This document shows, in pieces, positions 23,411 through 44,576 of a stretch of DNA of 61,799 bases. Numbering within the stretch: the first letter of the stretch is position 1; the number at the start of each line of letters is the position of its first letter. Source of the stretch: Dehalococcoidia bacterium (GTDB taxonomy: Bacteria > Chloroflexota > Dehalococcoidia > Tepidiformales > Tepidiformaceae); assembly GCA_023382755.1 (NCBI GenBank), contig JAHDWR010000001.1, forward strand, positions 1 through 61,799, written 5' to 3'. The position numbers and the translations under genes were made by a program. The notes under the pieces are model-generated. The model saw nothing but the letters and a program-made list of their open reading frames with translations, was not told the origin of the DNA and did no database searches.

Positions 23411-23433
23411 TCGCTCTATTATCCGTGCGCCGC

Positions 23434-25019: not shown

Positions 25020-25487
25020 GGCGACGGTTAGATGCGCGGCGAGCGGTGTTGAAGTCCTCCTCGCGACGCAGCATGGGTCGATGCTCGGTGCAGTCCGAGC
25101 ATCGCATATTTGGTTAGTAGCATCTCTTCAGACTCGATATCGTCCACGACGTAAACCGGATGGGACTGCGGTGGCCCGTGCACAATCGCGCCGGCGACCT
25201 TGGCGGCGATCGTCCTCGAGCTGGCGCTGTGCTCAGTCGGCACGCTCAAGAAGACCAACGGCATGCTGGTGCGACACTCCAACCGCTTCGCCGCAGGGAA
25301 GGCCCGACACGGACGCATCACCCAAGCTCTCGGCATCGGCGAACGAGGCCTCAGTCCAGCGAAGGCCCGAGGCCTCTCAGGTCGGAACATCGCCCAACGC
25401 ACGGAACCGTTTGTAAGGTCCGGGCCGCGCTCGTTGACGTGGAGACAAAGTCGAAGGAAGCCGACGTCTCGGTGGACGATGGGCCGC

Positions 25488-28706: not shown

Positions 28707-31700
28707 TCACTCCCGCTCGAACCCCTGGCTCGTGAACTTCAGCGACCTGCTGTTCTCCGTCACCGTCCTCACGACGTTGTCAGGCGCGCCGTCCGGGATG
28801 TCGGCCTCTATCTCCAGTGTCACGCGGACGTCCGCGCCTACCAGCCCCACGAGGTGAGCGATGACTTCGTCGGCGATGCGGCTCGCGTCGCGACCGGCTC
28901 TGCTCGGGTCGAGTGATGCCGTGCCGTGGAAGCGCCTGGGCTTCGTCTCCGCCGGCGTCGCCGGACCACCGGTAGAAGTGGAGGTGCCAGGCGTACCCGG
29001 CCCGGAAGCGTGTCCGGCAGCGGCCGTCGCAGCGGCTCCCCCCTGTCCAGTCGCGCCGGCAGCCTTGGCGGCGTCCTCTTCGAGCTGGAGTTGCGCCCAT
29101 TCCGCGCGCACAAGCAGACCCGCGTCATTCTGGCGCGACACGTCGACCGCCTCCCCGCAGCGAAGGCCACGGTACCGGTTGCTCGCCTCATCGAAGCTCT
29201 CTGCATAGGCGAACGAGTCCTGCGTCCAGAGGAGCGTGCGAAGGCCGGAACGGATGGCTTCCAGCAAGACCTCGGGATCGCGCAGCCGTGGGAGATAGGT
29301 GTACTGCGCGAAGTCTTCGATGAGCTGGCGGATCGCAACGTGGTCGCCCCGCCAGAGCGGGATGTCGTCCAGGTACTTCTTCAGGACAGTGTGGCCGAGG
29401 CCGGTGATGAGCAACTCGTCGCTGCGCAGCTTTTTGCTGGCGCGTGCTGCCAGCCGGTCCTGTCCGGAGAGGCGGATGCTCTGCCACGTTACCGGCGCTG
29501 GGGGAATTGGTTGCACGGGCACCAGCAACCATTGATACGTCTCCGGGATGCGCGCATTCACGGCGCTGTCGCTGGCCGCCTTCTGGGTCTCTGCCTGCTT
29601 CACGCGGCTCGGATCCAATTCCAGTTGCACCCGCTCCGCGAGGATCGAGTCCCACGCGAGGAACCGCCGGGTTGCCTCGTCGAGGTCCTGGAGGCGAACT
29701 GCATCGGCGGCGAGGAACACAAGCGTATTGCGGTAGCCTCGTGGTGCGCTTCCGCGGCTTTCGAGGATAGCCTTGGCTGCATGCTCCGAGAGGTTGTTCT
29801 CCCGGCTGTAGCGGTGGTCGAGACCAAGAACCACCAGACGCGCGTCTGTATCGTCGGGCACGTCATAGCCGGACTGCGGAAACGGGTGGACGCGAGAGAA
29901 ATCGCCCTTGGAGCCGTTCTTCCGGTCATCCACATCCATCCGGATGCGTCGCTCGATCTCCTGCGAGACCTTGTCCGGCTCGCGCTTCAGCTGCTCTGCC
30001 CGATCCTCGGCCATCTTTGTGACCGTTGGCTGCGTGGAGTACCAATAGCGGTTGCCGTCCGCGTAGAGGTATGTCGCGGCAGCGCTCAGCCGCCGGAGCG
30101 CATCGCCGAAGATGGCCGGGGACTCGCCCGGCATCACGCACCCGAGTTTGATTCGCCGGTCTTCGATACCCCGATGTGCGGCCTCCGCCGTCGGCGCCGA
30201 GCCGAGGTAGATGGTCCGCGCGACACGGCGCGTTGCATGCGAGCGGCCCAGGTTCGGCACTTCGCCATCGATCCGCAATGGCAGCGCGTTGGACCCGTCC
30301 ACATCCCGCTCGATTACCGGCACCCAACCCTCCGGCAGGTAGCGTGTCAGCTCGAACTGCACCCGCGGGTCGTCGATGGGAATGTTGCAGGGCAGGATGA
30401 GCGGGTTGCGGTCGCCCTTCTCCCAGAGGCTATGGATGACCGCCGCCATCAGTCGCAGGACGCCTCGTGTGCGCTGGAACCTCACCAGCGTCGACCAATC
30501 GCCGTAGAGCCGATCGAACACCTCCGGGTGGATCGGGTAGGCATCCTTGGTTCGCCGCTCGTAGTCTGATTCGCGGCACTCGGGCGGGAATTCCTGATGC
30601 TGTGTGCGGTAGAGATCGGCGAAGGCGCGGGCCACCGTATCCCGGTCGGTAAACTTCTCCGGCCCTTCGAGAGACTGGAACAGGCGCCGGCGCACGATCT
30701 CGAAGCCCTCTTCGGCGCTGGCCGGACGCCATGACGATTCGACCCGGCCGATGACATTTTGGAGCCGCTGTAACGCCTCGCGGCCACGCTGACCGCCGAC
30801 TTCGATATCGTCCGCCTGCGCATGTGGGGAGGTGCCCGTGTCCGAAGCGGGCAGGCTGATGACGAGCAAGCAGTTCTCGGCCAGCTTCGCCGACTCGGTC
30901 AGTGCCTGCGCAAAGGTGAAGTGTGTATCGAAGTCGCCAGCCGGCAGATCCTTGGCGTCGTGGAGCTGGCGCGCGTAGGCAACCCACTCGTCGATGAGGA
31001 TGAGTGCCGGTCCGTACTCTTCGAGAAGCTCTCGCAGCCGGTCACCCGGGTTTGTGGCGTTCTCATCGTCGGCACGAATGCGGTCGAAGGCGGGACGTCC
31101 GCCCAGTTGCCAGGCGAGCTCGCCCCAGAGCGTCCGCACGACCGTCCCGTCCGGCTTCGTCGTGGGGTTACCCGGCGAGATCTTGTTGCCGACCAGCACG
31201 ACCGGCTTCGCTACTCGTGGCAGCTCGGTCACGCCGGCATCCGCCATGACCGCATCGATCCCCGCGAGCTCGCTCGGCTTCGCGCCGGAGAAGAGGTGGA
31301 AGAGCGCGAGCATCGAGTGAGTCTTGCCTCCGCCGAAGTTTGTTTGGAGCTGGACGACAGGGTCGCTACCGTTGCCCGAGAGGCGCAGGATCGCGCCCGT
31401 GAGCATCTGCTTGAGGCTCACCGTCAGATACGTGCGGCGGAAGAACTCGACCGGGTTCCTGTAGTCGTCGGAGCCTTCGCCGAGGTGGACCTGCCAGAGG
31501 TCGGCGGCGAACTCGGCCTGTTGGTAGCGCCCCGAGGCCACGTCCGGGTGTGGTGTCACCACGTCCCGCCACGGCTTGAGGTTGCTGATTGCCTGTGTTT
31601 CGACGACCGTTCCGGCCGAGCGCCGCTGCTGGCTGCGGACCTGCTCATCGAAGCGGACGCGCTGCAGCTCCATCGACATTTTCTCGACTTCTTCGGCCTG

Positions 31701-32075
31701 CGAGGCTGAAACAGCGGTAAGGAGCCGAGAAGCGGAGTCGAGCGCCCGGTAGGTGTCATTGCCCGAGAAAGCGTTCTGATGCGCCCATTTGTTCCGGATG
31801 TCGATGAGCTCGTTGACGAGGCTGCGTTCCGCCCTTCCCAGCGTGAGCCGGAAAACCTCGCCCCAGAGGCGGTCCATCACGACCAGCAGCACCGCGATGT
31901 CATTGAGTGGGTCGGCCCGGTCGCCGCCAAGGCGCGTGTCACTGAGGATGTCGCGGATCTGGTCGGCGGCGCTGCCGCTGTAGCGGGACTTCACCTCGCG
32001 CTCCACAAAGGGCCGCAGGCCATCCCGCAACAGGTCCAGCGCTTTGCCGACGCGCTCAGTGTTCGTGATGGCCAT
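28707..32075 (-). CDS. Swt1-type HEPN domain fused to a DUF499 (BrxC/PglY-like) P-loop ATPase
   Basis: HEPN LVNELIDIRNKWAHQNAF (R-x4-H). P-loop QLQTNFGGGKTHSMLALFHLF. Walker B-like PALILIDEWVAYARQL. Size 1122 aa. Confidence 0.8.
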   Translation of the reverse strand: MAITNTERVGKALDLLRDGLRPFVEREVKSRYSGSAADQIRDILSDTRLGGDRADPLNDIAVLLVVMDRLWGEVFRLTLGRAERSLVNELIDIRNKWAHQNAFSGNDTYRALDSASRLLTAVSASQAEEVEKMSMELQRVRFDEQVRSQQRRSAGTVVETQAISNLKPWRDVVTPHPDVASGRYQQAEFAADLWQVHLGEGSDDYRNPVEFFRRTYLTVSLKQMLTGAILRLSGNGSDPVVQLQTNFGGGKTHSMLALFHLFSGAKPSELAGIDAVMADAGVTELPRVAKPVVLVGNKISPGNPTTKPDGTVVRTLWGELAWQLGGRPAFDRIRADDENATNPGDRLRELLEEYGPALILIDEWVAYARQLHDAKDLPAGDFDTHFTFAQALTESAKLAENCLLVISLPASDTGTSPHAQADDIEVGGQRGREALQRLQNVIGRVESSWRPASAEEGFEIVRRRLFQSLEGPEKFTDRDTVARAFADLYRTQHQEFPPECRESDYERRTKDAYPIHPEVFDRLYGDWSTLVRFQRTRGVLRLMAAVIHSLWEKGDRNPLILPCNIPIDDPRVQFELTRYLPEGWVPVIERDVDGSNALPLRIDGEVPNLGRSHATRRVARTIYLGSAPTAEAAHRGIEDRRIKLGCVMPGESPAIFGDALRRLSAAATYLYADGNRYWYSTQPTVTKMAEDRAEQLKREPDKVSQEIERRIRMDVDDRKNGSKGDFSRVHPFPQSGYDVPDDTDARLVVLGLDHRYSRENNLSEHAAKAILESRGSAPRGYRNTLVFLAADAVRLQDLDEATRRFLAWDSILAERVQLELDPSRVKQAETQKAASDSAVNARIPETYQWLLVPVQPIPPAPVTWQSIRLSGQDRLAARASKKLRSDELLITGLGHTVLKKYLDDIPLWRGDHVAIRQLIEDFAQYTYLPRLRDPEVLLEAIRSGLRTLLWTQDSFAYAESFDEASNRYRGLRCGEAVDVSRQNDAGLLVRAEWAQLQLEEDAAKAAGATGQGGAAATAAAGHASGPGTPGTSTSTGGPATPAETKPRRFHGTASLDPSRAGRDASRIADEVIAHLVGLVGADVRVTLEIEADIPDGAPDNVVRTVTENSRSLKFTSQGFERE

Positions 32076-32079
32076 GGTG

Positions 32080-35000
32080 CTACTCCTCGCCGATCAATCG
32101 CGGCTGTTGGGCCTTGGTAAGAAGCGCCTCCCGTGCGAAATGCGCGATCTCCGGCCAGCCGAGGACTAGGGCGTTGTACGCTTGGGCTTCGGCCGAACGC
32201 TTCTTCTTTTCGCAGATGTCGAACAGCCGGTATGCAAGCTCCCGCGCGATCTCGGCATGACTTCCCATCTGAGCGAGGAGGCGCCCTGCTTCCTCGTCAC
32301 CTGACTTCTCATGGTAGTAGACCCGCACCAGCTGATGTGTCATCTCCCAGATGGTAAGCCGCTTGTCGGTCGTGGGGTCCCAGGTCGAAGACAGCTCGTC
32401 CGGCCGCAAGAGCCGGACCTTTCCTCCCTTCGACTGGATTACGCCAGCCTGCTGTAGCCCCGAGACTGACGTCACCTTCGCCTTGCTCAGCAGTTCCGCC
32501 TCACCGAAATCGCCCTCGGCAAATCCCTTCTGCTCGAACCACGAGATTGCCCAGCGCGTGTCTCCATCAAAGTCGTCTTCCTGCTCCGACAACACTTCAG
32601 TGAGAGTCTGGTTGATGAGGGAGAGGGCCGCTCGGACGCTCATGGGCTTGCCGCTACTCTCGAGCACCCGCGAATACTGCGAATAGACCGCCATCCCCGG
32701 CCCGATGGCCGCTTGCGCAAAGTCGACGGGGGCAATGTTGCCCTGCTGGAGGTGGCGAAGGGCTCCGGGGAGCTCGTGCTTTAGTTCCGCGACGAAGGAT
32801 CGCCGATCTGCCTGAGGTGCTGAGTCGCTGCGCGGCCGGCAGGCAAGCACGATGTAAGACGCGAGAGCGTTGGCCCCCATAGAGACCATGCGCCACTTCT
32901 GAGATGCCCTGATCGGCCATGTCGCGGTGATCTGGAATTCGGCCGACAGGAGCGCTTCGAGCAACGTCTCCCACCCAGTGATAGAGTCCACAGATTCAAC
33001 CGGGTCCTGCTCATCGATGGTCCCAGAATCCTCGTCCTCCTGTTTGAACGCGTAATAGACTGTCAGCGGGAAGCGTGTGTCTATGCGCTCCCGAAGCGCC
33101 GTGAAAGCAGCACGAAATCCACGCTCGAAGTGCTGCTTCGCCTTCTCGCGGCTTCCTTCGAACCTGTCTGGTGACGCTATAAGCTCGGCCACCTTGGGCG
33201 TGAACAGAGTATTGAAAAGGTCGGCATGTATGTCCCACAGTGTGCGCCTCATCCAGACATAGAAGAAGTCGGATAGCGTCGCATAGCTGATATTGTTGTA
33301 GTATGGCGGATCCGTGCTCACCATAAGCCCAGGAGCCTCACTGATATCGGTTGAGGCATCAAGCTGAGTGGCTACGCCACGTACGGATCCAACACCGAGC
33401 GTCGTGATGCAGTCTGCAACGTATTCTGAGCATGTCGTCCAACCGCCAACGGAGTCTCCCAGCAAGTTCGCCTCGCCATAGTCGAAAACCATTGGAAGAG
33501 CTTGACGGCCAAATAGATTCATGATCTTTTCATTGCTCGAATTCCATCGACACAGGCTGTTGTTGAAATCGGTGCAACGGTCGAGCGCGAACGCCAAGTA
33601 GGTTGAAATGGTCGCAGCATAGCTTGCGGCCAAGTCGGAGGAGTGTCCGCTTGCTAGCGCGTCGGAGCGCACTTGAGGACTAACCTCTCTGATGAGGTCA
33701 CTTATCGCCAGAAGCGTGGTTAGTTGTCTATCGGAGAAGAGGTGGCCCCACGTTCTCAGGCCGTATGCCGTGCAAACCCCGCCGGTGATTTCGGCACGCG
33801 TTGGAAGTGACCCAGCCAGAAACGTGTCCCGCGCTTCCTGAATCGTATCGCTCTCGCAGGCGGCGGCTAGTTCATGGTTAGAAGGCGCGTCAGCGTAGAG
33901 CTTCCCTCGGGTTCCTTCCGCGACGACGGCCACCAGCCGTCGTCGCAGCCTGCCGGCTTTCCCCTCGGATTGGATGTACGAACGGGGGATGGGCGTGTTG
34001 GTCAGAAGACATCGGAAGTCTTGGCCCTTGCCCGCCTTGGTACCCAATCGAGCCGGGCCGAGTCGCTCGGGTGGCAACGTCCCGGCCTTCACGCACATCC
34101 GCCATCCGTCTGGCGCAGACGCGTCGAGCTGGGGTTCAAGCCATGACATGTTTCGCGGCTTCGTCGACAGCATGAAGCTTGAGAGGAGCGGGACGTGCTT
34201 GCCCCGAGCGGCCGGGTTCGGACTGGCGACAGTCCTAGCCCAAATCCATGCAATGACCTTGGTCGTGCCACGCGCTTGCCCGTCGGGGAGCTCAAGACGG
34301 GGATACAGATGCCCAACCAGACTCGTGGCCCGCTCCCGTATAAGGCGGCTGTAATACCGAACGTCTGCCGCGAGACCATGAGTGCCGCGCCAGCTCACGC
34401 CTGCTAGTGTCTTCCCATCACTTGGGTTGACCGGCGCACAATTTAACCACCGGGGTGCAAGCTCCAGGTTCGATCTATTCAGCACCACGGCTACGGGATT
34501 CAAGTCTCCGGCAATGGCTTCCAGGCCAAGACGGTTCGCCTCGAGTGGGATCGATCCACCCCCAGCGAATGGGTCAAAAACCCGTGGAAGTGCACCACTA
34601 GCGTGCTGGAGGACTTCCTTGCGTGCTTCCGCATAGACCTCCGGATGCTCGTGCAGCTTTTTCCCCATCATCTCGCGTAATACCGCGAAGAGGCGTTCGC
34701 GTTCCTGGTCCTGCAAGTCCTCCGTAGGCCACTTTTCGGGGTGACCACTTGGATCATCGACGAGGGATGCGAATAGCACGGCGCGGGCTGCGGGCAAAGG
34801 TAGCCTTGCCCACCAGTGATGCACGCCCTTGGGGTGTGGCCCAATTCCGGGCATCTTGTCGTAGGCCGAGGCGTCGTTGATCTCGGGAAGCGGGAGCGCC
34901 ACCTCGATCAGCTTCTTGCGGGTGATGGTCATGTCGGGCGTATCTCCAGCGATCGGCGTGGCTCCCACGCGAGGTGTCGGGCTTGGACTCTTGCGAGCGA

Positions 35001-35664
35001 CGACCGCGGCAGGCGCTGCGGCTAGCGGCTGTTGGACCGGTCGTAGCCTGGCGGCCGGCGCCACGACCATCGGGCCGCGCTCCGCGTGTACCTGCATCGG
35101 CTCGATCAGCCGTCCGCAGAGCGCGAAGTTTTGCAGGCCGGGTGGCACCACGATGCTACCGGCGGAGAGCTTTCCAGACTCCAAGTCATCTCGGAGTTCA
35201 CGTAGCAGTCGCCCGAGGACGTTCGCGCCAACAAGTGTCCCATCAGGCTGCGGCTTGGCTCCCCAGAACTCGTCCCGCCGAGACTCCTCGACGATGGCGC
35301 CATCTCCTGTCGCCAAGAGCAGTCGGCCGAAGCTCTCCGGGTGCTGCGCGAGCTTCACTCGCAGCGCCCACCGCATGATGGTGATGCGGACTTCGTCCCA
35401 GTCGGGTCGCGTGTCCTTGCGATGCGGCTTGGTCCGCATCTTCGCCGTCATCGGGCTCGCTTCGGCGAGGACGATCCGCTGGAGCTCTGGCCTGTGCGGG
35501 AAACGGCACGCCTGGTACAGAGCCTCGGAGGTCCGGATGCGAATCCCGTTGAGCTCCAGCGGGAATCCGGCCGCCATGTTGGAAAGGCCTCCGAACCGCT
35601 CGGTGGTCTTGCGGAAGACTGCGCACTCTTCGCGCCGGTAGGTCCTGGTGCCGGGATCTTTCAC
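32080..35664 (-). CDS. NADAR (YbiA-like N-glycosidase) domain fused through a Pro/Ala linker to a DUF1156-type DNA methyltransferase
   Basis: NADAR FGGLSNMAAGFPLELNGIRIRTSEALYQACRF...RPDWDEVRITIMRWALRVKLAQHP...EESRRDEFWGAK. DUF1156 N-terminus MTITRKKLIEVALPLPEINDASAYDKMPGIGPHPKGVHHWWARLP. AdoMet motif RVFDPFAGGGSIPLEA. Catalytic motif MVSTDPPYYNNISY. Start proposed at GTG 35664, overlapping the upstream TGA (GTGA); the track ORF begins at 35760. Confidence 0.8.
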   Translation of the reverse strand: MKDPGTRTYRREECAVFRKTTERFGGLSNMAAGFPLELNGIRIRTSEALYQACRFPHRPELQRIVLAEASPMTAKMRTKPHRKDTRPDWDEVRITIMRWALRVKLAQHPESFGRLLLATGDGAIVEESRRDEFWGAKPQPDGTLVGANVLGRLLRELRDDLESGKLSAGSIVVPPGLQNFALCGRLIEPMQVHAERGPMVVAPAARLRPVQQPLAAAPAAVVARKSPSPTPRVGATPIAGDTPDMTITRKKLIEVALPLPEINDASAYDKMPGIGPHPKGVHHWWARLPLPAARAVLFASLVDDPSGHPEKWPTEDLQDQERERLFAVLREMMGKKLHEHPEVYAEARKEVLQHASGALPRVFDPFAGGGSIPLEANRLGLEAIAGDLNPVAVVLNRSNLELAPRWLNCAPVNPSDGKTLAGVSWRGTHGLAADVRYYSRLIRERATSLVGHLYPRLELPDGQARGTTKVIAWIWARTVASPNPAARGKHVPLLSSFMLSTKPRNMSWLEPQLDASAPDGWRMCVKAGTLPPERLGPARLGTKAGKGQDFRCLLTNTPIPRSYIQSEGKAGRLRRRLVAVVAEGTRGKLYADAPSNHELAAACESDTIQEARDTFLAGSLPTRAEITGGVCTAYGLRTWGHLFSDRQLTTLLAISDLIREVSPQVRSDALASGHSSDLAASYAATISTYLAFALDRCTDFNNSLCRWNSSNEKIMNLFGRQALPMVFDYGEANLLGDSVGGWTTCSEYVADCITTLGVGSVRGVATQLDASTDISEAPGLMVSTDPPYYNNISYATLSDFFYVWMRRTLWDIHADLFNTLFTPKVAELIASPDRFEGSREKAKQHFERGFRAAFTALRERIDTRFPLTVYYAFKQEDEDSGTIDEQDPVESVDSITGWETLLEALLSAEFQITATWPIRASQKWRMVSMGANALASYIVLACRPRSDSAPQADRRSFVAELKHELPGALRHLQQGNIAPVDFAQAAIGPGMAVYSQYSRVLESSGKPMSVRAALSLINQTLTEVLSEQEDDFDGDTRWAISWFEQKGFAEGDFGEAELLSKAKVTSVSGLQQAGVIQSKGGKVRLLRPDELSSTWDPTTDKRLTIWEMTHQLVRVYYHEKSGDEEAGRLLAQMGSHAEIARELAYRLFDICEKKKRSAEAQAYNALVLGWPEIAHFAREALLTKAQQPRLIGEE

Positions 35665-36695
35665 AGGTCGTCCAGAAAGGCGCTCAGGTCGAATCCCTCG
35701 TCGACCGGGCGGACATTCGTCCGACGGGGAAACAAGGGGTACCAGGGGTCGCCTGCCCATAGTGCCAAAGGCGCGTTGTTCGGGCAGTTGCGGTAGGTGA
35801 CCAGAAGCGAGCCGAAACCAAGGCTCTGGAGAACCATGTTCCCCAGCGGCCGCTGATACTCGTTCAGGTGCGGGGATTGCTCCCTGATCCGAAGGCCCGC
35901 AGTCAAGAACTCGCGCTCTAGGAGCGCGCGCCCCTCCTCATCTGTAAAGAAGCCGGCGGGCCCCACGCCGGCCGCCGTCCTGTACACCGGCTGGTAAGTC
36001 AGTGCTGCGACGTACCCCCGAGCGAGAGGGTCGTCTAGAAGCTCCCGCGGGCGAAGCACGTCGCAGGCGTTGATGTACGCCTTCCGGTCCTCGATGGCGA
36101 GGCAGCGCCACCAGTCCACCGCCAAATCGACGCCCCTCGCCGCTGCCGCCTTCTTGATTTCCGTTTCGGCGTAGTAGCGGCCGCCTTCATGCCACGCGAT
36201 GACGATGACAACCAGTTTGGCCGGTCCTGGCGGCAGTCCGGCGAGCCACCCAGTTACGTCATTCTTGAGGCGGTTGCCTGTGAAGATGCCGTCGTCAAGG
36301 TACACGTACGCACTCGGTGTCTCGCCGCACGATTCCACCGCCAATCCGCACTCGTCCCTGAGACGCTGGTCGAACAAGGTAAGCAGGTCGTGCTGACTGC
36401 TGCCGCCCTGTTGAATGTCGAGGACCCGGATCCCGCGCCAGAAATCGGCCGCCTGGCCGCCGGTGAGTCGCTCGTGAACCACGAGCTTTGCCAGGAATTC
36501 GCTGACGTTGTCGCGCGTGATGTACGTCTTGTCGAGCACATGGTTGAGCTCTCTGAGGATGGGGACCCGGACCGCCCGATCGAACTGACTCACCCAGCGG
36601 TCGACGTGCTCTGGGGTGGGTCGATCGATCTCGCCGTCGCGGTAGTCCGCGATGGTTGTTGCGATGGATTGGAGCAGGTCGTCTCGTTCGGCCAC
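35661..36695 (-). CDS. Phosphoribosyltransferase (PRTase)-like protein of unknown function
   Basis: PRPP-loop-like SAYVYLDDGIFTGNRL (hydrophobic-DD-xxx-TG). Helical N-domain and conserved-looking C-terminus GFGSLLVTYRNCPNNAPLALW. GTG start at 36695 with GAGGGGA upstream. Confidence 0.5.
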   Translation of the reverse strand: MAERDDLLQSIATTIADYRDGEIDRPTPEHVDRWVSQFDRAVRVPILRELNHVLDKTYITRDNVSEFLAKLVVHERLTGGQAADFWRGIRVLDIQQGGSSQHDLLTLFDQRLRDECGLAVESCGETPSAYVYLDDGIFTGNRLKNDVTGWLAGLPPGPAKLVVIVIAWHEGGRYYAETEIKKAAAARGVDLAVDWWRCLAIEDRKAYINACDVLRPRELLDDPLARGYVAALTYQPVYRTAAGVGPAGFFTDEEGRALLEREFLTAGLRIREQSPHLNEYQRPLGNMVLQSLGFGSLLVTYRNCPNNAPLALWAGDPWYPLFPRRTNVRPVDEGFDLSAFLDDL

Positions 36696-36804
36696 GATTT
36701 CGTCCCCTCAGGTTGGCTACGTCGGCTCCCCTGCCAGCGTGAGCAGCTGTCGGAAGTGGTCCTTCATGAAGGAGCGCTCGTGGTCAGGCTTGGTGGGCTC
36801 CGAA

Positions 36805-39800
36805 TCACTCATGGGCGATCACAATCCGATAGCTTGCGGCGTGAACTTGAAGCAGGCCAGACGTCTGGAGTTTGCGGAGCTGATCGCCGGTGACGACTTC
36901 TGGTTCCCCATCTGGCCCTTCGAGAACGAGCGCGCGGCCGTCTGGATCCTGAATGCAGCCGTTCCATACCTCGGCTTCGAGCTCAACCGGCTCTTCTTTC
37001 CAACGCACCTCCTTCGACCAGTAGCACTTCTCCAGTGTCCCGTCGGGTGACGTTTCCTCCCAGGGGAACACGGCCTGTGGCACATGTCGCAACAGCATCC
37101 CGTTCGGGTGCCGGAACTGGCCGGCACTATCCGGCTGGTAGCCAAGGCTGCGAGCGAGTCGCTCCATGAGACTTGGGTGCGGTGGTTGTGTGAGCCTTGT
37201 GCGTTGTGTCCGAGTCTCAACACGCGTGGCGTCGTCGGTGCTATCTGTTTCCGGCTCTGCGGAGGGACCATCATCTGCCGGTACCACCAGTGGCGCGGGC
37301 TGCTCGTCGTGGCTGCCGGCATCATCGACAAGCGTTGACTCCGCGGCATGATTCGACGGCATCACGCTCGCACTAGGTCGGAGGATGGACTCGGCCTGGT
37401 CGGCGATCAGCCCCTCTGCACCGGACTCAGCGCTCCCCTGCTCGCCTTCAGGCGCCGGATCGAACTCGAAGTTGGCGTCAAGGTAGTCACGGACAAATCC
37501 TGGGTCGCGCTGATAGCAGAGCCGGATCGTGTCTTCTAGCCCGTAGGGCTCGAAACGGCGCGCTATCTCATCGGTCAGCGGTTTCATGAGCTGGGCCGGA
37601 GCAAGGTTCAGCACGTAGATGCAATCGTCGGCCCAGATAGCCGACGTCGACCTCGGAGTACCGGCGGGCATTCCGTCCAAGTAGCGCTGGGTCTTCAGGC
37701 TATCCACACACAGCACCCGGCTCTCGACCGTGACTTCGGCGAGTTCCCGTACTGCCGCCTGGTGAACCTCGTCGGGGAGCCGGACCCGCGTCAGCGTCTC
37801 GGCGAGGGCGCTCAGCCATGGCTGCGGCAAGTCCCGTCCGGCGCTCGTTTGCTCGCTCAATCGCTCCTCGATGCTCGACGTGAGGGTAGGTAGGTGACTG
37901 AAGGGCTCACCGGCGAGCACGGACGTGCCCAACATCTGAAAGTTAGCGGTCGCGTCCTGGACCCAGCTGAGGAGATCCGCGTAGGTGCCCAGGCTCTGCA
38001 TGCTCGAGGCGAACTTCAGGTCAGACGTGTGGGCGAGTTTCGAACTGAGCGTTAGCCATCGGTCGCATTCAATCCAGACACGCTGTGGATAACGTTGCTG
38101 GAGTGCCCTCACGCGCCTGATTTCTTCTGGCGGAAGGCGCGTCCCAGTCGGAAGGTTGGACAGCCAGCCGAGTGCCATTTCTGCCGTTGGCCGCTCGGCG
38201 ACACCTAGCCGGGACCAGAGGGGGAGGTCCCTGAGTTCGGCCAGCACGAGCGGCGCCTCCGGTGCGTCAGCCTCATCCCCATATCGGAAGGCATTTGCGC
38301 TGGAGACCCAGCCAGCCTCAGTGGTGAAGATGAGGCTCTCGGATGCGAGCGCTTGCTGGAGTTGCGTCAGTTCGACTGCTGGCATCGCAGCAGCTACGGC
38401 GTCCAGCGCCTGATAGAGCTTGCCGAGTTCGATCACAGGGGGTTGCTCTGCGGTGGAAAGTGCCCGGAGCTTGCGGAGAATGATCTCGGCGTTGTTCGGT
38501 CTCGTCCCCACCCCGAGTGCGACAAGCAGCTCACGATTCTGAGGCGTGTCCAGCTCAATATGGACAAACGGCTCGACGCCCTGAAGCGCTTCTGTCTCCT
38601 GCGTTCGACACAGTAGTTCAGAAGGCGTGTGAAGGAAGCCTTTCGTGTCGCGAAGGCAGGGCAGTTCGCGGAGTTTGGCGAGCCAACCCGCCGGAACTCC
38701 CTTTACGGCGAGGCTTCGCCGATAACCGTTCCGCGCGATCTCGGTGACGCGGCATTCGCGCGTCTCGGGCCGGGTCGGGCCCCCGGCGAGGATTCGCTTG
38801 AGAACCCGTTCCCAGACCTGTGGGTCAGACTCCGCGATGGAGTGCCAGTGGGCCCAGAACTGAGCCTCGAAGTCATGGTCTTCCAACCTGAAGTCTGGGT
38901 AGCTGTACGACGGAGACACCGGTTCTCCATGGCCACGCTTGCGAAGCTCCAGCTCGAGGTCGGCCTTGTTCCAATAACTGCGCGGGCGCGGGGCGATCGG
39001 AGGCATACGTTGCAGATGGGCAGAGATCCACTTGTCCCAGTCCGCAGGGGTACACGAGACTCGTTCCCCCGAGTACAACTCGTGCAACACGTGGGAATCA
39101 ACCCATGCCCCTGGGTGGTCACCGGTGATACCACCGTCGGTGTTGTAGACGAGTTCGGTTGGCAGCCGTAGCTGCCTGTCCCGCGTGACAAGGAACGACG
39201 AGGAGGGCGGTGATGCGCCAAGGGCGGCGCCGATCTCGGCGATACGCACCCAGGTTGTGATTCGGGTGTCCTCGCCCCGGGCCGTGAACAGGCCGACGAA
39301 GCGCTCAAACACTTTCGTTGGCGTGCTCGCGGAGTCGAACCCCAACTTAGTTTGGAGGTCGAGCGCGCGCTCGATCTGCGGGATGGCGGATTCGTCTCCG
39401 CTGCTCTCAGCCTTCCTCAGGTAACGGGGCCAGTTCGGGTCCAGCACGTCAACGTATTCGCTGAGGAACTGCCAGTCCTCCTCGCGGTTGAGCAGGCGCT
39501 TGTCTCCGAGGCGCACGAGTTCGGCCGCGGGATGTAGCACAGGCGATCCAGGCACTGGGGACAGGCGAACGCGCCCTCTTGCGTCGCGCCACGCCGGCCC
39601 CCCCAACTCGGGACCAAGGAATGCCCATAGTGCCAGGAGCCTCCGCCACGTCTTCGGCTTAGGGGGTGCGCTCGCCGACAGGCGAGAAGCGACCTTGGAG
39701 CGGTCCCACCAATCAAGATTGAAATAGTCGCGGAGCTTCTTCCTGCCTGCATCGCTCAGCGCATGCGAGACCGGGGATCTATCTTCAACCCCAAGGATCT

Positions 39801-41001
39801 TGGTCACTTCGGCTGTCGACCAGATGTCGAACAACTCCACCGGCAGGACGACGGCCGCGTCCGGCGAGACCAGACCAGCGTTGTCGGCGAGGATACAAGG
39901 CTTGTTGCCCAGCGCATCGAGGAAGGCCTCATGGACGATCGCCCGGCATGCTTCTTCGATGGAGTCGTCACCGCCGGGTGGTTCAACAAGAAGGTCGTAG
40001 GCGCGGGTACGTTCCGCATCTGACAGGTCGCTCCGGTTGAGCCAATCCAACATTGCCTGCGCGGCCAGTCGTCCGGCCCGATCCAGTAGCCAGCGGTTGG
40101 TCGATGAGATGGAGGGGTCTTTGATCTCAACCCGTGCCGGGTCCTGAACAAAGGGGGCGTTAATTGCGAATGGAAGGTCGGGCCGGACCCCGGTGGGCAA
40201 TACAACGAACAATCGTCCTGCGGCTCCAAGGACGAGCGTCACCTCGCAGGGAGGCAGGTCGAAGTCTGAACTCGCTCCCCGTTCGTCACGGACTTCGCTA
40301 ACGGCGTCCTCCGGAAACTCCCCTGGTTCGGAGCGGATGACCAGATACTCAGGTGACCCTCCACCAAGCCCGAGCCATTCAGAGCGCGGGACAGGCCCGG
40401 CACGGTCTCGGTCCCAACTAACTACCGCTCCCTCCACTTCCAACGTGCGGAGCGACTTGAAGAACAGGAAGGAGTAGGCACTCTCTACCCACTCCCGGAG
40501 GTTCTTCTCGACCTCCTTGCGACGACCTTCGTCTTTGAGGTCGACACTGATGATCGTCCGCCCATCCCCAGACGTCGAGCCGTTCCAATGTGGCTCCGTG
40601 AAGCGGTCGCGGTGAAACTCCACTCCTAGGGATGGCGTACTGAGGCGTACGATGTCGCCCAGGCTGAATACGCTCTTGAAGCCGATGCCTCGGAAGCCGA
40701 TCGTGTGTAGGTGCCTCTTGTTCGAGTAGGCGAAGCGACAGAGCGATCGGAAGTGGTCCTCCTCGAAATCCTGGCCATCATGTCCAAACAGGAATCCTTC
40801 CTCGTCGACAGTCACGCTCGCTCTGGTCGCCCCAGCGTCGTCGGCATTCTGGAGGAGTTCGGAGAGCACATGACGGGGACTCTGCACCTGCCGGAAGAGT
40901 TGGTGCCACGGACCGGCAAGATCTGGGTCGGCCTCGAGCTTGTCCCACCGCTCGGCAGCTGCTTTCTTCACGGCTTCGTAGTAGAGCGGCGGCGGCGTCA
41001 T
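36805..41001 (-). CDS. Giant sacsin/NO VEIN-type GHKL (HATPase) protein, 1398 aa
   Basis: N-box HVLSELLQNADDAGATRASV. G-boxes FGHDGQDF and IGFRGIGFKSVFSLG. The remainder has no motif I recognise. An ATGA overlap (40998-41001) links it to the helicase gene. Confidence 0.65.
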   Translation of the reverse strand: MTPPPLYYEAVKKAAAERWDKLEADPDLAGPWHQLFRQVQSPRHVLSELLQNADDAGATRASVTVDEEGFLFGHDGQDFEEDHFRSLCRFAYSNKRHLHTIGFRGIGFKSVFSLGDIVRLSTPSLGVEFHRDRFTEPHWNGSTSGDGRTIISVDLKDEGRRKEVEKNLREWVESAYSFLFFKSLRTLEVEGAVVSWDRDRAGPVPRSEWLGLGGGSPEYLVIRSEPGEFPEDAVSEVRDERGASSDFDLPPCEVTLVLGAAGRLFVVLPTGVRPDLPFAINAPFVQDPARVEIKDPSISSTNRWLLDRAGRLAAQAMLDWLNRSDLSDAERTRAYDLLVEPPGGDDSIEEACRAIVHEAFLDALGNKPCILADNAGLVSPDAAVVLPVELFDIWSTAEVTKILGVEDRSPVSHALSDAGRKKLRDYFNLDWWDRSKVASRLSASAPPKPKTWRRLLALWAFLGPELGGPAWRDARGRVRLSPVPGSPVLHPAAELVRLGDKRLLNREEDWQFLSEYVDVLDPNWPRYLRKAESSGDESAIPQIERALDLQTKLGFDSASTPTKVFERFVGLFTARGEDTRITTWVRIAEIGAALGASPPSSSFLVTRDRQLRLPTELVYNTDGGITGDHPGAWVDSHVLHELYSGERVSCTPADWDKWISAHLQRMPPIAPRPRSYWNKADLELELRKRGHGEPVSPSYSYPDFRLEDHDFEAQFWAHWHSIAESDPQVWERVLKRILAGGPTRPETRECRVTEIARNGYRRSLAVKGVPAGWLAKLRELPCLRDTKGFLHTPSELLCRTQETEALQGVEPFVHIELDTPQNRELLVALGVGTRPNNAEIILRKLRALSTAEQPPVIELGKLYQALDAVAAAMPAVELTQLQQALASESLIFTTEAGWVSSANAFRYGDEADAPEAPLVLAELRDLPLWSRLGVAERPTAEMALGWLSNLPTGTRLPPEEIRRVRALQQRYPQRVWIECDRWLTLSSKLAHTSDLKFASSMQSLGTYADLLSWVQDATANFQMLGTSVLAGEPFSHLPTLTSSIEERLSEQTSAGRDLPQPWLSALAETLTRVRLPDEVHQAAVRELAEVTVESRVLCVDSLKTQRYLDGMPAGTPRSTSAIWADDCIYVLNLAPAQLMKPLTDEIARRFEPYGLEDTIRLCYQRDPGFVRDYLDANFEFDPAPEGEQGSAESGAEGLIADQAESILRPSASVMPSNHAAESTLVDDAGSHDEQPAPLVVPADDGPSAEPETDSTDDATRVETRTQRTRLTQPPHPSLMERLARSLGYQPDSAGQFRHPNGMLLRHVPQAVFPWEETSPDGTLEKCYWSKEVRWKEEPVELEAEVWNGCIQDPDGRALVLEGPDGEPEVVTGDQLRKLQTSGLLQVHAASYRIVIAHE

Positions 41002-44000
41002 CCAGGCTCCCCCGCTCGCGCCAGCAACTCGGCAAAGTCGTAATTCACGCTGGTCACCCCAAAATCCGGCTCCCGGCGAAAAGGCCTGTGCAGATAGTGG
41101 ACGGTGTGACCGCCATCGGGCGCGAACTGCACCATCGCGAGGATGAAGGTCTCGGGCTGATTCAGGGAATAGAGGATCTCGTTGCGGGTCACCGTGACGG
41201 TATCGGCGCCTGCGACGCGTCCTTTGACCTCGATGAAGCGAACGCGCCCGTCATGTCCGAGGCTCTCGATGTCGTAGCCCAGCTTTTCGTGCTCGCGATC
41301 TACTGGCTTGAAGCCAAGCTGCCGCTCAACTTCCATGATGATCGCCCTCGCACGGGCGCCAACGAGCTGCGTATCCACGGCGGCCTGCGCCTCAGAAAGC
41401 TGTCGTCCGGTAAGCCGGGCAACGAGCCCAGCTGGAATCACCAGCACGCCCCCGAGCACCACCGGCGGCAATGGCGAGAGCTGCGCTTCGCGCTTGAGTT
41501 CGGCGAGGCGCTTTTCCAGGCGTGCTTGAAGCCCATCGGCCCGCTTTCGCGCCTCGCTGGAGTTCAGACGTGCATTCGTCTTGCCTGCCTGCTCCTGGAG
41601 CTTGAGGTCGTCTGCCCGGTGATCCCAATGGTTGATTTCCTTCGTCAGGCGTTCCTTCACCGCCGCCTCGGTCTTCCGGATCAGCTCCAACCTCCGGTCA
41701 CGCACCTCCGTGATATGACCGGGTACCACGTTTGCCACCGCGTAGCCGGCAGCCATCTGCTCGAGATCACGCTTGATCCACGCGCACTCGGGCAGGTCGA
41801 GGATCTGCTCGACACCGGGTTCGTCCTCGCGCAGCGGACGGTAGTCGAGGTAGGGGGCGTACTGGAGGCCACGGGCGTCGCCGTTCGGCCCGATTTCGAC
41901 GTAAAGCATCTGCTTCGAGATGACTCGCCGTTCGCCTGCCCTCGTAAGGCTCCCGTCCTGGATAGCGTGCTCAAGGTAGAAGAGCACGCGCGGCTGCTCA
42001 CCGAGGTCACGATCGTCCACGAGTATCGCCCCACGCCGCAGCAGGTCGCGGTGGCGCTCGATCGTCAGGTCAAGTGTTGCATCCAGGAGTGGATGGCCCG
42101 GGCAGACGAACGCCGCCAGGGGTTGGCCTTGGGGTGCGAGGAGCGATTTCTCGAATGCCACCCGTTCGTATCGCGACAGCACCGGCTCGCCGATCCCGAT
42201 GGTGCGATCCCGGTTTCGGATCGGTGCCGGGACGTGCGTGATCTCGAACCGTCGTGATTCACGCTCTCGGATGGTCCCGCCGAGGCGCCGAAACGCTTCA
42301 AGGAAGAACGATTCGATGTAGTTGGGCTGCAACCTCCGCGCCTCCGCCCGCTCCATGTCCTCGCGGATCTTGTGCACGCGTGCCGCATCCATGCTGTCCT
42401 GCGCGAGCGCGTTGTCTTCGAGCAGTTCTTGAAGGTGGGTGGGGTCGAAGGCGCTTTCGACTGCCTGCGTGAGGCGTGCCCGCACCTCTGGCCGCTCGCC
42501 GTAGCGGATCGCCTCGACCAGCAGATCGCGAAGCGATGCTCCCGCGAAATGCACCTTGCCGAGAACGTCGAACACTTGCCCGTGCAACGTTCCCCGGGCC
42601 TCTTCGAGCTTTGCGAGAAGCGTACGATACACCTCGCCTTCCCGCGTCTCATCGGCCACGAGATTCCAGAGGTGGCAGACCTCCGTCTGCCCGATCCGGT
42701 GGATCCGCCCGAATCGCTGCTCGATACGGTTCGGATTCCACGGCAGGTCGTAGTTCACCATCAGGTGGGCGCGCTGCAGGTTGATGCCCTCGCCAGCAGC
42801 GTCGGTGGCGAGGAGCACCTGCACGTGTGGATCGTGCCGGAAAGCCTCCTGGGCTTTCAGCCGTTCCTCCCGCCCCATGCTGCCGTGAATTTGGACGATG
42901 GCTTCGCTGCGACCGAGGAGCGTCGAAATTCGTTCGTAAAGATAGGCGAGCGTGTCCCGGTGTTCCGTGAAGATGACCAGCTTCTGGGCAGGCGACGACT
43001 TCGGAGGCTCAATGGCTTGCCCGTCGTAGGGTGCTCGCTCCTCCGCAAAGTGATTCGCGATGGCGGCAGGCGTGAAGATCTCGCCAAGGAGGCTCGATAG
43101 CTCCTTCCATTTCGTGTCTTCACCGCTTCGCCGAACGCTCAGCGCGAGCGACTCGATGCGCTTGAGCGTGTCGATTTCGTGCTGGAGCTCAACAATCGTC
43201 CGGGCGGCGGTCGCCTGGTCGAGGACCTGTTCTTCAGCCGCCTCTACCTCGTCATCCGGAGCGTCATCCAGGTCATCGAGATCGTCTGCGTCCAGGAGTG
43301 GCCCGGCCACGGTCAGCGGTGACATGGCCGCGGCCCCGCGCTGTAGCAGTTCAAGTTCGCGCAGGCGCGCTTCCAACCGTTCGCGTCGCCTCCGTAGCGA
43401 TTCGTGGATGGCAGCGGGAGAGGATGCAAGACGCCGTTGGAGGATCGTGAGCGCGAATCCAACCGTTCCGGTCCGCTTGTCGTTCTGGAGCGCCTCGGCT
43501 CGGTTGAACTCCTCGCGAACGTAGTCGGTGACTTCCTTGTAGAGCCGTGCCTCCTGCTCGGACAGCTTGTACGGCACGGTATGTGCGATCCGCTCCGGGA
43601 AGAGCGGCGTCGCGTCGAACTTGACCAGCTTCTCCTTCACCATCCGGCGCATCAGGTCCGAAGCATCCGATGCGTGCACACCGTCGCGGAAACGCCCTTC
43701 AAAGCGGTCGCTATCGAGCAACGCCATGAACAGCTGAAAATCCGCCTCTTTGCCGTTGTGTGGCGTGGCAGTCATGAGCAGGAGATTCCGAGTCAACGTT
43801 CCAAGGAGCTCACCGAGGTGGTACCGCTTCGTGTACTTCACCTCGCCGTTGAAGTAAGTCGCGGACAGCTTGTGGGCCTCGTCGCAGACGACGAGGTCCC
43901 ACCCGCAGTCGGGTGCCTGGAGTTTCTGCTGAACGTTCTCGTCCCTCGACAGCTTGTCGAGACGCGCGATCACCAGGTCGTTCTCGACGAACCAGTTCCC

Positions 44001-44576
44001 TGTTCGGGCCGCCTCGAGTTTGTCGTTCGTCAGAATCTCGAAGGGAAGGTTGAAGCGGCGGTAGAGCTCGTCCTGCCATTGTTCGACCAGACTGCCGGGA
44101 CAGACGATGAGGCAACGCTTGAGGTCGCCACGGACGATCAGCTCCTTGATGAGCAGGCCAGCCATGATGGTCTTGCCCGCGCCGGGGTCGTCGGCCAGGA
44201 GGAACCGAAGGGGCTGGCGGCGCAGCATCTCCTCGTACACGGCCGTGATCTGGTGCGGGAGCGGGTCCACGAGGGATGTGTGGACGGCGAGGAGCGGGTC
44301 GAAGAGGTGGGCCAGACGGATGCGGTGAGCCTCGGACACCAGCCGCAGCAGGTGTCCATCGCCATCGAAGGCCCACGGGCGTCCAATGTCGGCGATCGCG
44401 ATCCGTGCCTCGTCGTGCCTGTACAACAGCTCGTTGGAGACCTTGCCGGCCGGATCCTTGTAGGTGAGTTCGAGAGCGTCCGACCCAAACCATTGGACGC
44501 CGACCACCGTTACGAGACGATCGGGTAATAGGCCGCTCACCGCGGCGTTCGGTAGGAGTTCCTCAAGCTTGGCCAT
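40998..44576 (-). CDS. SNF2-family helicase with a C-terminal DUF3883-type (restriction-endonuclease-fold) domain
   Basis: LLADDPGAGKTIMAG, VVCDEAHKL, LLMTATPHNG, VLLATDAAGEGINLQ, NPNRIEQRFGRIHRIGQ. C-terminus KLGYDIESLGHDGRVRFIEVKGRVAGADTVTVTRNE. Confidence 0.85.
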   Translation of the reverse strand: MAKLEELLPNAAVSGLLPDRLVTVVGVQWFGSDALELTYKDPAGKVSNELLYRHDEARIAIADIGRPWAFDGDGHLLRLVSEAHRIRLAHLFDPLLAVHTSLVDPLPHQITAVYEEMLRRQPLRFLLADDPGAGKTIMAGLLIKELIVRGDLKRCLIVCPGSLVEQWQDELYRRFNLPFEILTNDKLEAARTGNWFVENDLVIARLDKLSRDENVQQKLQAPDCGWDLVVCDEAHKLSATYFNGEVKYTKRYHLGELLGTLTRNLLLMTATPHNGKEADFQLFMALLDSDRFEGRFRDGVHASDASDLMRRMVKEKLVKFDATPLFPERIAHTVPYKLSEQEARLYKEVTDYVREEFNRAEALQNDKRTGTVGFALTILQRRLASSPAAIHESLRRRRERLEARLRELELLQRGAAAMSPLTVAGPLLDADDLDDLDDAPDDEVEAAEEQVLDQATAARTIVELQHEIDTLKRIESLALSVRRSGEDTKWKELSSLLGEIFTPAAIANHFAEERAPYDGQAIEPPKSSPAQKLVIFTEHRDTLAYLYERISTLLGRSEAIVQIHGSMGREERLKAQEAFRHDPHVQVLLATDAAGEGINLQRAHLMVNYDLPWNPNRIEQRFGRIHRIGQTEVCHLWNLVADETREGEVYRTLLAKLEEARGTLHGQVFDVLGKVHFAGASLRDLLVEAIRYGERPEVRARLTQAVESAFDPTHLQELLEDNALAQDSMDAARVHKIREDMERAEARRLQPNYIESFFLEAFRRLGGTIRERESRRFEITHVPAPIRNRDRTIGIGEPVLSRYERVAFEKSLLAPQGQPLAAFVCPGHPLLDATLDLTIERHRDLLRRGAILVDDRDLGEQPRVLFYLEHAIQDGSLTRAGERRVISKQMLYVEIGPNGDARGLQYAPYLDYRPLREDEPGVEQILDLPECAWIKRDLEQMAAGYAVANVVPGHITEVRDRRLELIRKTEAAVKERLTKEINHWDHRADDLKLQEQAGKTNARLNSSEARKRADGLQARLEKRLAELKREAQLSPLPPVVLGGVLVIPAGLVARLTGRQLSEAQAAVDTQLVGARARAIIMEVERQLGFKPVDREHEKLGYDIESLGHDGRVRFIEVKGRVAGADTVTVTRNEILYSLNQPETFILAMVQFAPDGGHTVHYLHRPFRREPDFGVTSVNYDFAELLARAGEPG

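Follow-up and report, generated by a model that had tools for sequence, protein, structure and literature searches.

A five-gene operon of a Dehalococcoidia bacterium that probably nests a DS-32 anti-phage cassette in a GHKL-bearing Hma system

Five co-directional genes on a contig from a Dehalococcoidia bacterium (JAHDWR010000001.1, assembly GCA_023382755.1; the whole stretch of 61,799 nucleotides (nt) that was analysed is referred to as the window) raise the question whether they encode a new type of immune machine or whether known defence modules have been combined in one operon. The genes code for a SNF2-type helicase-nuclease, a giant ATPase of the GHKL type, a phosphoribosyltransferase (PRTase)-like protein, a DNA methylase with an N-terminal NADAR domain, and a HEPN-DUF499 ATPase. 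We consider it rather probable that the operon nests an Hma core, the GHKL protein as a fourth subunit and a cassette of the two-gene anti-phage system DS-32 that is wired to restriction-modification (R-M). The identity of these parts is nearly certain, while the step that couples them is put forward as a hypothesis.

The Hma core and the DS-32 cassette

The helicase-nuclease, the methylase and the HEPN-DUF499 ATPase almost certainly form the system that PADLOC names Hma, alias the Type-1 DUF499-centred BREX-related (BR) system. PADLOC scored HmaA, HmaB and HmaC with 1680, 990 and 1139 bits in essentially full-length matches, which span amino acids (aa) 1-1190 of HmaA and 279-1216 of HmaB, and Pfam recognised the DUF1156 domain of HmaB with 76.8 bits. 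HmaA carries the ExK motif FIEVKG at aa 1114, HmaB has the methyltransferase motifs I (FDPFAGGGS) and IV (DPPYY), and HmaC contains the HEPN Rx4H motif as RNKWAH at aa 94 and the Walker A motif GGGKTHS at aa 248. The three defining genes are co-directional and show the canonical architectures and order, in a system for which insertions are tolerated. Hma was defined on 1,638 loci from 26 phyla (Payne et al., 2021), and the Type-1 BR system has exactly this architecture, with HEPN as a fused domain and with helicase and restriction endonuclease in one protein (Rakesh and Krishnan, NAR 2026; PMC12839542). An R-M operon with HEPN-DUF499 was first noted in a survey of HEPN domains (Anantharaman et al., 2013; PMC3710099). 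In Halomonas, the nickase activity of the NOV_C domain of HmaA is essential to defence against T4, and 66.5% of the hma loci contain inserted genes, making them a hotspot for embedded defence genes, commonly between hmaA and hmaB (PMC11232893).

The Hma scores and the match to the Type-1 BR architecture bear out the view of the original prediction, made from the sequence alone, that DUF499, DUF1156 and SNF2 form a recognised BREX-related, R-M-like triad. Parts of canonical BREX systems (PglZ phosphatase, BrxL, BrxA, BrxB) were found as domains neither in the five proteins nor in their immediate neighbours. The further suggestion that the triad underlies MADS was wrong, since the description in the MADS preprint differs from the Pfam and PADLOC content of the window and mentions no DUF499, DUF1156 or helicase; on this description we rejected the identity. 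MADS of Pseudomonas aeruginosa resembles the present locus as a methylation-associated multi-gene defence operon, but differs in that PADLOC found no known system in it and that the triad domains go unmentioned, in a comparison by description only.

With near certainty, the PRTase-like gene and the NADAR block represent the two components of DS-32, the second of which is fused in frame to hmaB. DS-32 is a validated two-gene anti-phage system of E. coli that consists of a PRTase and a NADAR protein and that its authors liken to DarTG (DefensePredictor; DeWeirdt et al., bioRxiv 2025 / Science 2026). Using the DS-32A and DS-32B sequences taken from the supplement of the DefensePredictor paper, BLASTP aligned the PRTase-like protein to DS-32A with 27% identity over 335 aa (E 2e-35) and the methylase N-terminus to DS-32B with 44% identity over 183 aa (E 4e-56), and the E. 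coli proteins match the same Pfam families as the PRTase and NADAR of the window. The PRTase has a sequence that resembles the phosphoribosyl pyrophosphate (PRPP) loop, YVYLDDGIFTGNR, at aa 130-142, with LDDGIFTGNR at aa 133; D134 and D135 as well as a C-terminal TxRNCPNNxPL motif (aa 300-310) are invariant across genomic contexts. Its AlphaFold2 (AF2) model reached a predicted local distance difference test (pLDDT) score of 88, and the best Foldseek matches in the PDB were type I PRTases (uracil, xanthine-guanine and orotate PRTases), mainly over a core of about 75 residues. A sequence-profile search of the PDB with the PRTase returned spurious matches only, and a full-text literature search for "PRTase-CE" retrieved no paper.

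The likeness to DS-32 comprises end-to-end homologous proteins, the same gene order and overlapping stop and start codons, whereas NADAR in the window forms the N-terminal domain of a methylase of 1194 aa and is not a free protein of about 200 aa, and the pair lies inside the operon of another system. DarT1-NADAR and YarT-YbiA similarly place a NADAR N-glycosidase beside a ribosyl-transferring enzyme that it presumably counteracts, and have an anti-phage role, but the partner in the present locus is PRTase-like and a presumed PRPP user, not an ADP-ribosyltransferase. DarTG is set apart in that the adjacent enzyme here is a PRTase-CE protein and no DarT; according to the DS-32 authors, PRTase and DarT resemble each other neither in sequence nor in structure. 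NADARs are antitoxins that reverse the ADP-ribosylation of guanine and cytidine on DNA (PMC11543638, PMC11125620), and E. coli ybiA, which encodes a NADAR protein, shares an operon of the LexA regulon with ybiB, which encodes a DNA-binding PRTase-like protein (PMC11125620).

Genomic contexts of the cassette and of the GHKL gene

Homologues of the PRTase comprise at least 1471 clusters with 53-60% identity. With one genome scanned for each GTDB species, relatives were found in 283 genomes, and the best 80 loci were classified by tblastn with reference proteins. PRTase and NADAR are an obligate pair: in 79 of these species-level loci, the sequence that comes immediately after the PRTase gene encodes a NADAR domain, the exception being a contig that ends there. 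Embedding in R-M systems is the majority state (56 loci, in a PRTase clade of about 50-57% identity). Type I R-M systems host the cassette in 48 loci, where it lies between hsdM and hsdS, normally one unit, and NADAR is fused to HsdS in at least 41, giving a full-length protein of about 700 aa; the first three neighbourhoods, from Bradyrhizobium, Sinorhizobium and a myxococcal metagenome-assembled genome, read HsdM - PRTase-CE - NADAR::HsdS - HNH-HsdR. An Hma context (HmaA - PRTase - NADAR::HmaB - HmaC) was found in eight loci, seven of them with NADAR fused to HmaB. The fusion partner in R-M contexts is only the specificity-bearing subunit, with NADAR at its N-terminus, and never the product of the helicase, nuclease or ATPase genes; fused proteins with intact domains are full-length in at least 48 species-level loci.

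The other 24 loci are stand-alone pairs, and NADAR is unfused (about 200-250 aa) in 23 of them. In the 24th (L048, 10988-12463), the NADAR that follows the PRTase-CE gene is extended at its C-terminus by a region of about 300 aa without a Pfam match, a partner that is neither HsdS nor HmaB. Stand-alone pairs have unrelated surroundings, such as a TonB receptor, a prophage tape-measure gene, a ribonucleotide reductase, or SIR2 or helicase defence genes, and more distant PRTase-NADAR pairs in Klebsiella and Bacillus cereus are stand-alone as well. None of the 80 PRTase loci contained a GHKL homologue. In a search with the fusion junction, about 22 of the best 120 clusters carried NADAR together with DUF1156, and the closest DUF1156 relatives (72-82% identical) lacked NADAR. 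Hma-context members were interleaved with type I and solo ones in a neighbour-joining tree of the PRTases that was built without bootstrap. The accessible parts of the DS-32 texts do not mention the embedding of DS-32 in R-M systems.

Two features of the type I hosts may be recorded here. Their HsdR has an N-terminal HNH domain (L007, L009, L010 and most type I loci among L012-L091). In the S. meliloti locus (L009), a GmrSD_N (DUF262) gene is likewise located between hsdM and the PRTase gene, and the locus adjoins conjugation (Trb/VirB) genes.

The GHKL protein is recognisable over its N-terminal approximately 400 residues only, as a sacsin-type ATPase (Pfam SACS, 37.8 bits with a cut-off of 32.8; NCBIfam P_loop_sacsin, 74 bits with a cut-off of 50) with the motifs ELLQNADDAGA at aa 48 and GFRGIGFKSVF at aa 102. 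Its best PADLOC match was TmtA of the Tiamat system (PDLC03968, 211 bits), covering positions 73-450 of the 1486 in the model, or about a quarter. A sequence-profile search of the PDB gave only weak N-terminal matches to MORC3 and sacsin, and the body of the protein (aa 381-1398), modelled by AF2 with a pLDDT of 83, found no matching fold in a Foldseek search of the PDB (best E 0.45). RefSeq names the protein just "ATPase". Its homologues form at least 1626 clusters, and the 120 matches listed are mostly full-length and about 40% identical.

Scanning of metagenomes led to 351 confirmed relatives of the GHKL protein, and the best 80 loci were classified. A homologue of HmaA is encoded beside the approximately 1400-aa GHKL homologue in 76 of these 80 loci, usually directly upstream; in three of the 76 the order is HmaA-HmaB-HmaC-GHKL. 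Among the other four, two have HmaB/HmaC directly upstream and no HmaA in the stretch covered, one is truncated, and one (L172) is without Hma genes. The latter GHKL homologue (L172, 10001-13561) is the only one of the 80 with about 10 kb of flank on each side and no Hma genes nearby. Because HmaA adjoins GHKL in 76 of the 80 loci, GHKL belongs to an Hma sub-clade as its conserved fourth gene and is no local add-on. HmaA of the GHKL-type metagenome loci is 50-76% identical to that of the window, compared with 32-37% in PRTase-bearing Hma loci that lack GHKL. The order HmaA - GHKL - DUF1156 methylase without NADAR - HEPN-DUF499 occurs in L094, L095 and a Burkholderia conjugative plasmid, and GHKL is also found beside HmaA on RefSeq plasmids. 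In L094 and L095, which are free of the cassette and in which genes were called, the HmaA and GHKL genes overlap by 4 nt and the GHKL and methylase genes by 17 nt; the HmaA/GHKL overlap measures 1 nt in L092.

Single-chain proteins that combine sacsin-type GHKL with NOV_C match TmtA models strongly, and the C-terminus of one TmtA model aligns to NOV_C, from which we take same-chain NOV_C as a TmtA trait. Two such proteins of 684-810 aa are encoded on plasmids of Halosimplex (L180, 4926-7358) and Planococcus (L181, 4869-6923) and are prokaryotic counterparts of the architecture of plant NO VEIN. The GHKL protein of the window shares with Tiamat and NO VEIN the N-terminal sacsin-type Bergerat ATPase and the association with a NOV_C nuclease. 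It differs from Tiamat, which is a single-gene system, in that NOV_C sits on the neighbouring HmaA and not on the same chain, that Pfam finds no NOV_C in the GHKL protein, and that full-length similarity to TmtA is absent. As judged from these architectures, the GHKL-NOV_C pairing appears to be divided between two coupled genes, and this supports a functional link between GHKL and the HmaA nuclease. The C-terminal domain of the GHKL protein was also considered as a cryptic NOV_C that would make it a complete TmtA; this was rejected with an hhalign probability of 0.4% and no invariant acidic or lysine residues.

Besides the window, only two related lineages, L096 and L092/L093, were found to have all five genes in this arrangement, and their GHKL proteins are 88% and 53% identical to that of the window. 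The cassette lies between GHKL and hmaB, a position at which many relatives hold 1-7 kb of other cargo (L097, L105, L111, L112, L115-L117, L119, L124, L138, L150, L161 and L167), which may include further embedded defence genes. PRTase/NADAR-type Hma loci lack GHKL, and other DS-32 pairs stand alone or are embedded in type I R-M systems. The parts are separable, which makes the operon a nested set of known modules and not a single new five-part machine. The protein identities between the window and L093 vary along the operon (HmaA 88%, GHKL 53%, PRTase 45%, NADAR 88%, methylase body 47%, HmaC 73%), and the comparison with L096 revealed no nucleotide similarity in the methylase body (32748-34889) between flanks that are 78-90% identical. 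Such mosaic divergence suggests that the PRTase, GHKL and the specificity region have recombined or evolve fast. The GC content of the window has its deepest dip, with a minimum of 0.593 at 32000-35000, in the methylase body, and together with the divergence of this region the pattern would fit a swapping of specificities. The methylase of L096 is split into two open reading frames (ORFs) of 663 and 451 aa.

The claim of the original prediction that the locus is an undescribed composite system thus holds in so far as the five genes are not named as one system by any tool, and fails in that they belong to the known and separable modules Hma and DS-32. GHKL indeed lies outside the known triad and is undescribed in the Hma/BR papers, but its presence in 76 of 80 metagenome loci speaks against an expansion of this one locus. 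PRTase and NADAR do add a presumed ribosyl-base chemistry to the triad; with scores above both NCBIfam equivalog cut-offs, they are DS-32 and not undescribed. The cross-genome co-occurrence that had been proposed as a check was accordingly found for GHKL as a neighbour of HmaA, and not for PRTase/NADAR, which is in none of the 80 GHKL-type metagenome loci. The main texts on Hma/BR, the supplements of PMC12839542 and the main text of the Halomonas paper (PMC11232893), as far as these sources were available, make no mention of GHKL, PRTase or NADAR add-ons.

Reading frames and surroundings of the operon

The junctions of the operon were read directly. The HmaA and GHKL genes are joined by an ATGA overlap at 40998-41001, indicating translational coupling, the TGA of the PRTase gene overlaps the GTG of the methylase gene (GTGA at 35661-35664), and 4 nt (32076-32079) separate the methylase and HmaC genes. 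The GTG start of the methylase was also chosen in the public annotation of the same contig, and the match to the DS32_2 model, which begins at residue 7 of the protein from this start, agrees with it. Since the same fused ORF is found in independent assemblies, the NADAR::HmaB fusion is no sequencing artefact. Re-reading of ORFs and junctions reproduced the five co-directional minus-strand ORFs, overlaps and gaps of the original prediction, all eight motifs that it quoted were located in the translations, and its domain calls agree with Pfam (HEPN_Swt1 and DUF499; NADAR, DUF1156 and methyltransferase; PRTase-CE; sacsin-type GHKL; SNF2, Helicase_C and NOV_C). A scan for promoters and terminators inside the operon gave counts at or below the shuffled expectation, which is compatible with a single transcription unit but does not prove it. 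The gap between the GHKL and PRTase genes was considered as the site of a conserved micro-ORF or element, and this was rejected: the annotated 31-aa ORF (36717-36812, minus strand) is kept only in the closest relative, L096, and is probably not a gene.

Table 1. Features of the operon and of neighbouring genes in the window.
Feature	Position (nt)	Strand	Size or residues	Assignment
HmaA gene	40998-44576	-	1192 aa	
HmaA, SNF2 translocase		-	aa 123-366, 527-629	Pfam SNF2-rel_dom, Helicase_C
HmaA, NOV_C/DUF3883 PD-(D/E)xK nuclease	41112-41351	-	aa 1076-1155	Pfam NOV_C
Giant GHKL gene	36805-41001	-	1398 aa	
GHKL, Bergerat/TmtA-like region	39781-40884	-	aa 40-407	
GHKL, body		-		mostly helical
GHKL, linker		-	aa ~1185-1273	disordered
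GHKL, C-terminal domain	36808-37170	-	aa ~1278-1398	small, alpha/beta
GHKL-PRTase spacer	36696-36804		109 nt	upstream seam of DS-32 cassette
PRTase-like gene (DS-32 component 1)	35661-36695	-	344 aa	Pfam PRTase-CE PF24390, 177.6 bits; NF053875 DS32_1_antiphage, 383.5 bits (cut-off 250)
NADAR::HmaB methylase ORF	32080-35760, or 32080-35664 from GTG 35664	-	1194 aa from GTG	order: NADAR, ~70-aa linker, DUF1156, N6-adenine-type methyltransferase, divergent target-recognition body
NADAR (DS-32 component 2)	35107-35646	-	methylase residues 7-186	NF053876 DS32_2_antiphage, 252.9 bits (cut-off 240); Pfam NADAR, 84.5 bits
DUF1156 of HmaB	34684-34899	-		
HmaC gene	28707-32075	-	1122 aa	
HmaC, Swt1-type HEPN	31707-32045	-	aa 11-123	Pfam HEPN_Swt1, 112.8 bits
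HmaC, AAA+/STAND-like ATPase		-		Pfam DUF499, 105.5 bits
Ymh-family HEPN gene	44811-45614	+		PADLOC PD-Lambda-3_B, full length, 250 bits; TIGR02391
BilD-matching ORF	16981-18354	-		PADLOC BilD, full length, 553 bits
IrrE/M78 - UvrD - PD-(D/E)xK ORF	20015-23467	-	1150 aa	best PADLOC matches GajB-like
Three further ORFs	23434-25684			no family matches

The operon is part of a stretch of about 22 kb (window positions ~24000-46000) with a GC content of 0.59-0.65, compared with 0.68-0.70 in the flanks, which suggests an acquired island. Beside hmaA lies a divergent gene for a Ymh-family HEPN protein, for which no PD-Lambda-3_A partner was seen and which is not conserved beside Hma in relatives. A Bil defence system (ubiquitin-like conjugation) may be located at approximately 13-19 kb of the window, where an ORF matches BilD. 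The fusion of an IrrE/M78 peptidase-like domain with a UvrD helicase and a PD-(D/E)xK nuclease may represent another defence gene, and it is followed by the three ORFs without family matches (Table 1).

Proposed coupling, alternatives and implications

Judged by homology and by published work on Hma and BR systems, the N6-methylase HmaB would use its variable body to read a sequence at which it marks host DNA, and the ATPase HmaC together with the helicase-nuclease HmaA would find and cut or nick unmarked DNA, with the HEPN RNase of HmaC as a suicide back-up. The most likely role of GHKL would be to control the NOV_C nuclease of HmaA as a clamp or switch driven by ATP, because the same type of GHKL is fused to NOV_C in Tiamat/NO VEIN-like proteins. 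The DS-32 cassette occupies the site upstream of hmaB that is known as a hotspot of insertions. By analogy with DS-32, DarT1-NADAR and YarT-YbiA, the PRTase-like effector may use PRPP to make a ribosyl-base product, and NADAR may undo or block this in the manner of a toxin-antitoxin pair. Fusion would tether the neutralising activity to the DNA-recognition subunit, and loss or titration of the R-M complex, or its inhibition by phage anti-restriction factors, could then free the PRTase for a second-line abortive response. PrrC-EcoprrI and RloC provide a conceptual model for such coupling, as second-line effector cassettes within R-M operons that are held latent (PMC3710099). They are unrelated proteins, however, and the present locus differs from them in that the neutralising enzyme is covalently joined to the specificity subunit; its latency is proposed by analogy. 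More tentatively, and with less likelihood than we would grant a working model, the fusion of NADAR and specificity subunit may be a hard-wired guard, such that an anti-restriction attack or DNA without host sites unleashes phosphoribosylation of nucleic acids. If true, the guard would represent a previously unknown nucleic-acid modification that serves as second-line immunity coupled to epigenetic self-marking.

Several observations weigh against this nested and wired arrangement. The cassette could be a passenger, as it is restricted to the window, L096 and L092/L093 among Hma loci with GHKL. The 24 stand-alone loci and the validated E. coli system indicate that coupling is not needed for function, and NADAR is unfused in a few R-M contexts (L025, L045, L079 and L058). 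The PRTase fold is weakly supported by Foldseek (best E 0.02) and the substrate of the PRTase is a guess, while the GHKL body of 1000 aa is without a recognisable fold, so that the clamp or switch role derives from the N-terminal domain only. In addition, Halomonas HmaB was not protective as a methylase against T4 in one test (PMC11232893).

These points lead to the alternative that DS-32 is merely co-located, as an independent passenger in the hma hotspot, and that NADAR::HmaB is a neutral by-product of the overlapping stop and start codons. The frequency of insertions in hma loci (PMC11232893), the other cargo at the same position in many GHKL-type loci and the absence of the cassette from the 80 GHKL-type metagenome loci would all agree with it, as would the function of DS-32 alone in E. 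coli and in stand-alone loci. Nevertheless, we regard pure co-location as unlikely: the fusion arose with two unrelated partners, HsdS and the DUF1156 methylase, it is always N-terminal on the specificity-bearing subunit and is intact in numerous species, helicase, nuclease and ATPase genes of the same R-M operons show no NADAR fusion, and in type I systems the cassette splits two genes that usually form one unit. The precise tethering of NADAR to the sequence-reading subunit might also be expected if the PRTase phosphoribosylated DNA bases, creating a DarT-like lesion that the tethered NADAR erases on host DNA with recognition sites. Such a DNA writer and eraser would be in line with the removal of ADP-ribose from guanine and cytidine in DNA by NADARs (PMC11543638, PMC11125620) and with the ybiA-ybiB operon of the LexA regulon, which encodes a DNA-binding PRTase-like partner (PMC11125620). 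If it were true, ribosylation would constitute a second layer of self/non-self discrimination, close to the idea of the original prediction. The stand-alone forms lack a DNA-targeting domain, the structural match is limited to the PRPP-binding core, and we consider this explanation improbable. To our knowledge, no PRTase modifies polymeric DNA.

That all five proteins are mutually dependent components of one integrated machine and thereby a new immune type, which was the headline of the original prediction, would be suggested by the tight coupling of the five genes and by their identical order in the two further lineages. We judge it highly improbable, since many genomes carry just one of the two add-ons, be it the one or the other, DS-32 confers defence by itself, as does HmaA, and the five-gene form was found in three related lineages only. 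A housekeeping function, with NADAR as a YbiA-type N-glycosidase of riboflavin intermediates and the PRTase as an enzyme of nucleotide salvage, can practically be dismissed. TIGR02464 (ribofla_fusion) does match the NADAR domain with 62 bits, but this is below its cut-off of 73.7 bits, while the DS32_2 anti-phage model passes; moreover, the PRTase belongs to PRTase-CE/DS32_1 and not to a salvage family, and the obligate pair is embedded in R-M and defence contexts.

In the nested reading that we prefer, Hma models of PADLOC cover three of the genes and DS-32 models of NCBIfam two parts, so that these are already named, and the best PADLOC matches of GHKL are TmtA models, over a quarter of the model only. 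New is the recurrent fusion of NADAR to the DNA-specificity subunits of two unrelated classes of R-M systems (NADAR::HmaB and NADAR::HsdS), of which we found no description; it suggests that the fusion wires the Hma and DS-32 modules together functionally. The recognition of a GHKL-bearing Hma subtype, of which we likewise found no description, is also new, and so is the rare combination of GHKL and DS-32 in one operon of three lineages. For annotation, the locus should be named Hma (GHKL subtype) plus DS-32 (fused), and neither a new system nor MADS.

Hma and DS-32 are defence systems that are validated or widely predicted. The dedicated GHKL protein of about 1400 aa in a large Hma sub-clade alters the three-gene picture of Hma/Type-1 BR systems, and it links Hma to GHKL-NOV_C proteins of the Tiamat/NO VEIN type. 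The NADAR fusions are a clue that DS-32 works on DNA or in its vicinity and that it can be linked up with restriction-modification, and the locus thereby offers a testable handle on the mechanism of DS-32 and on the cross-talk between R-M and abortive modules.

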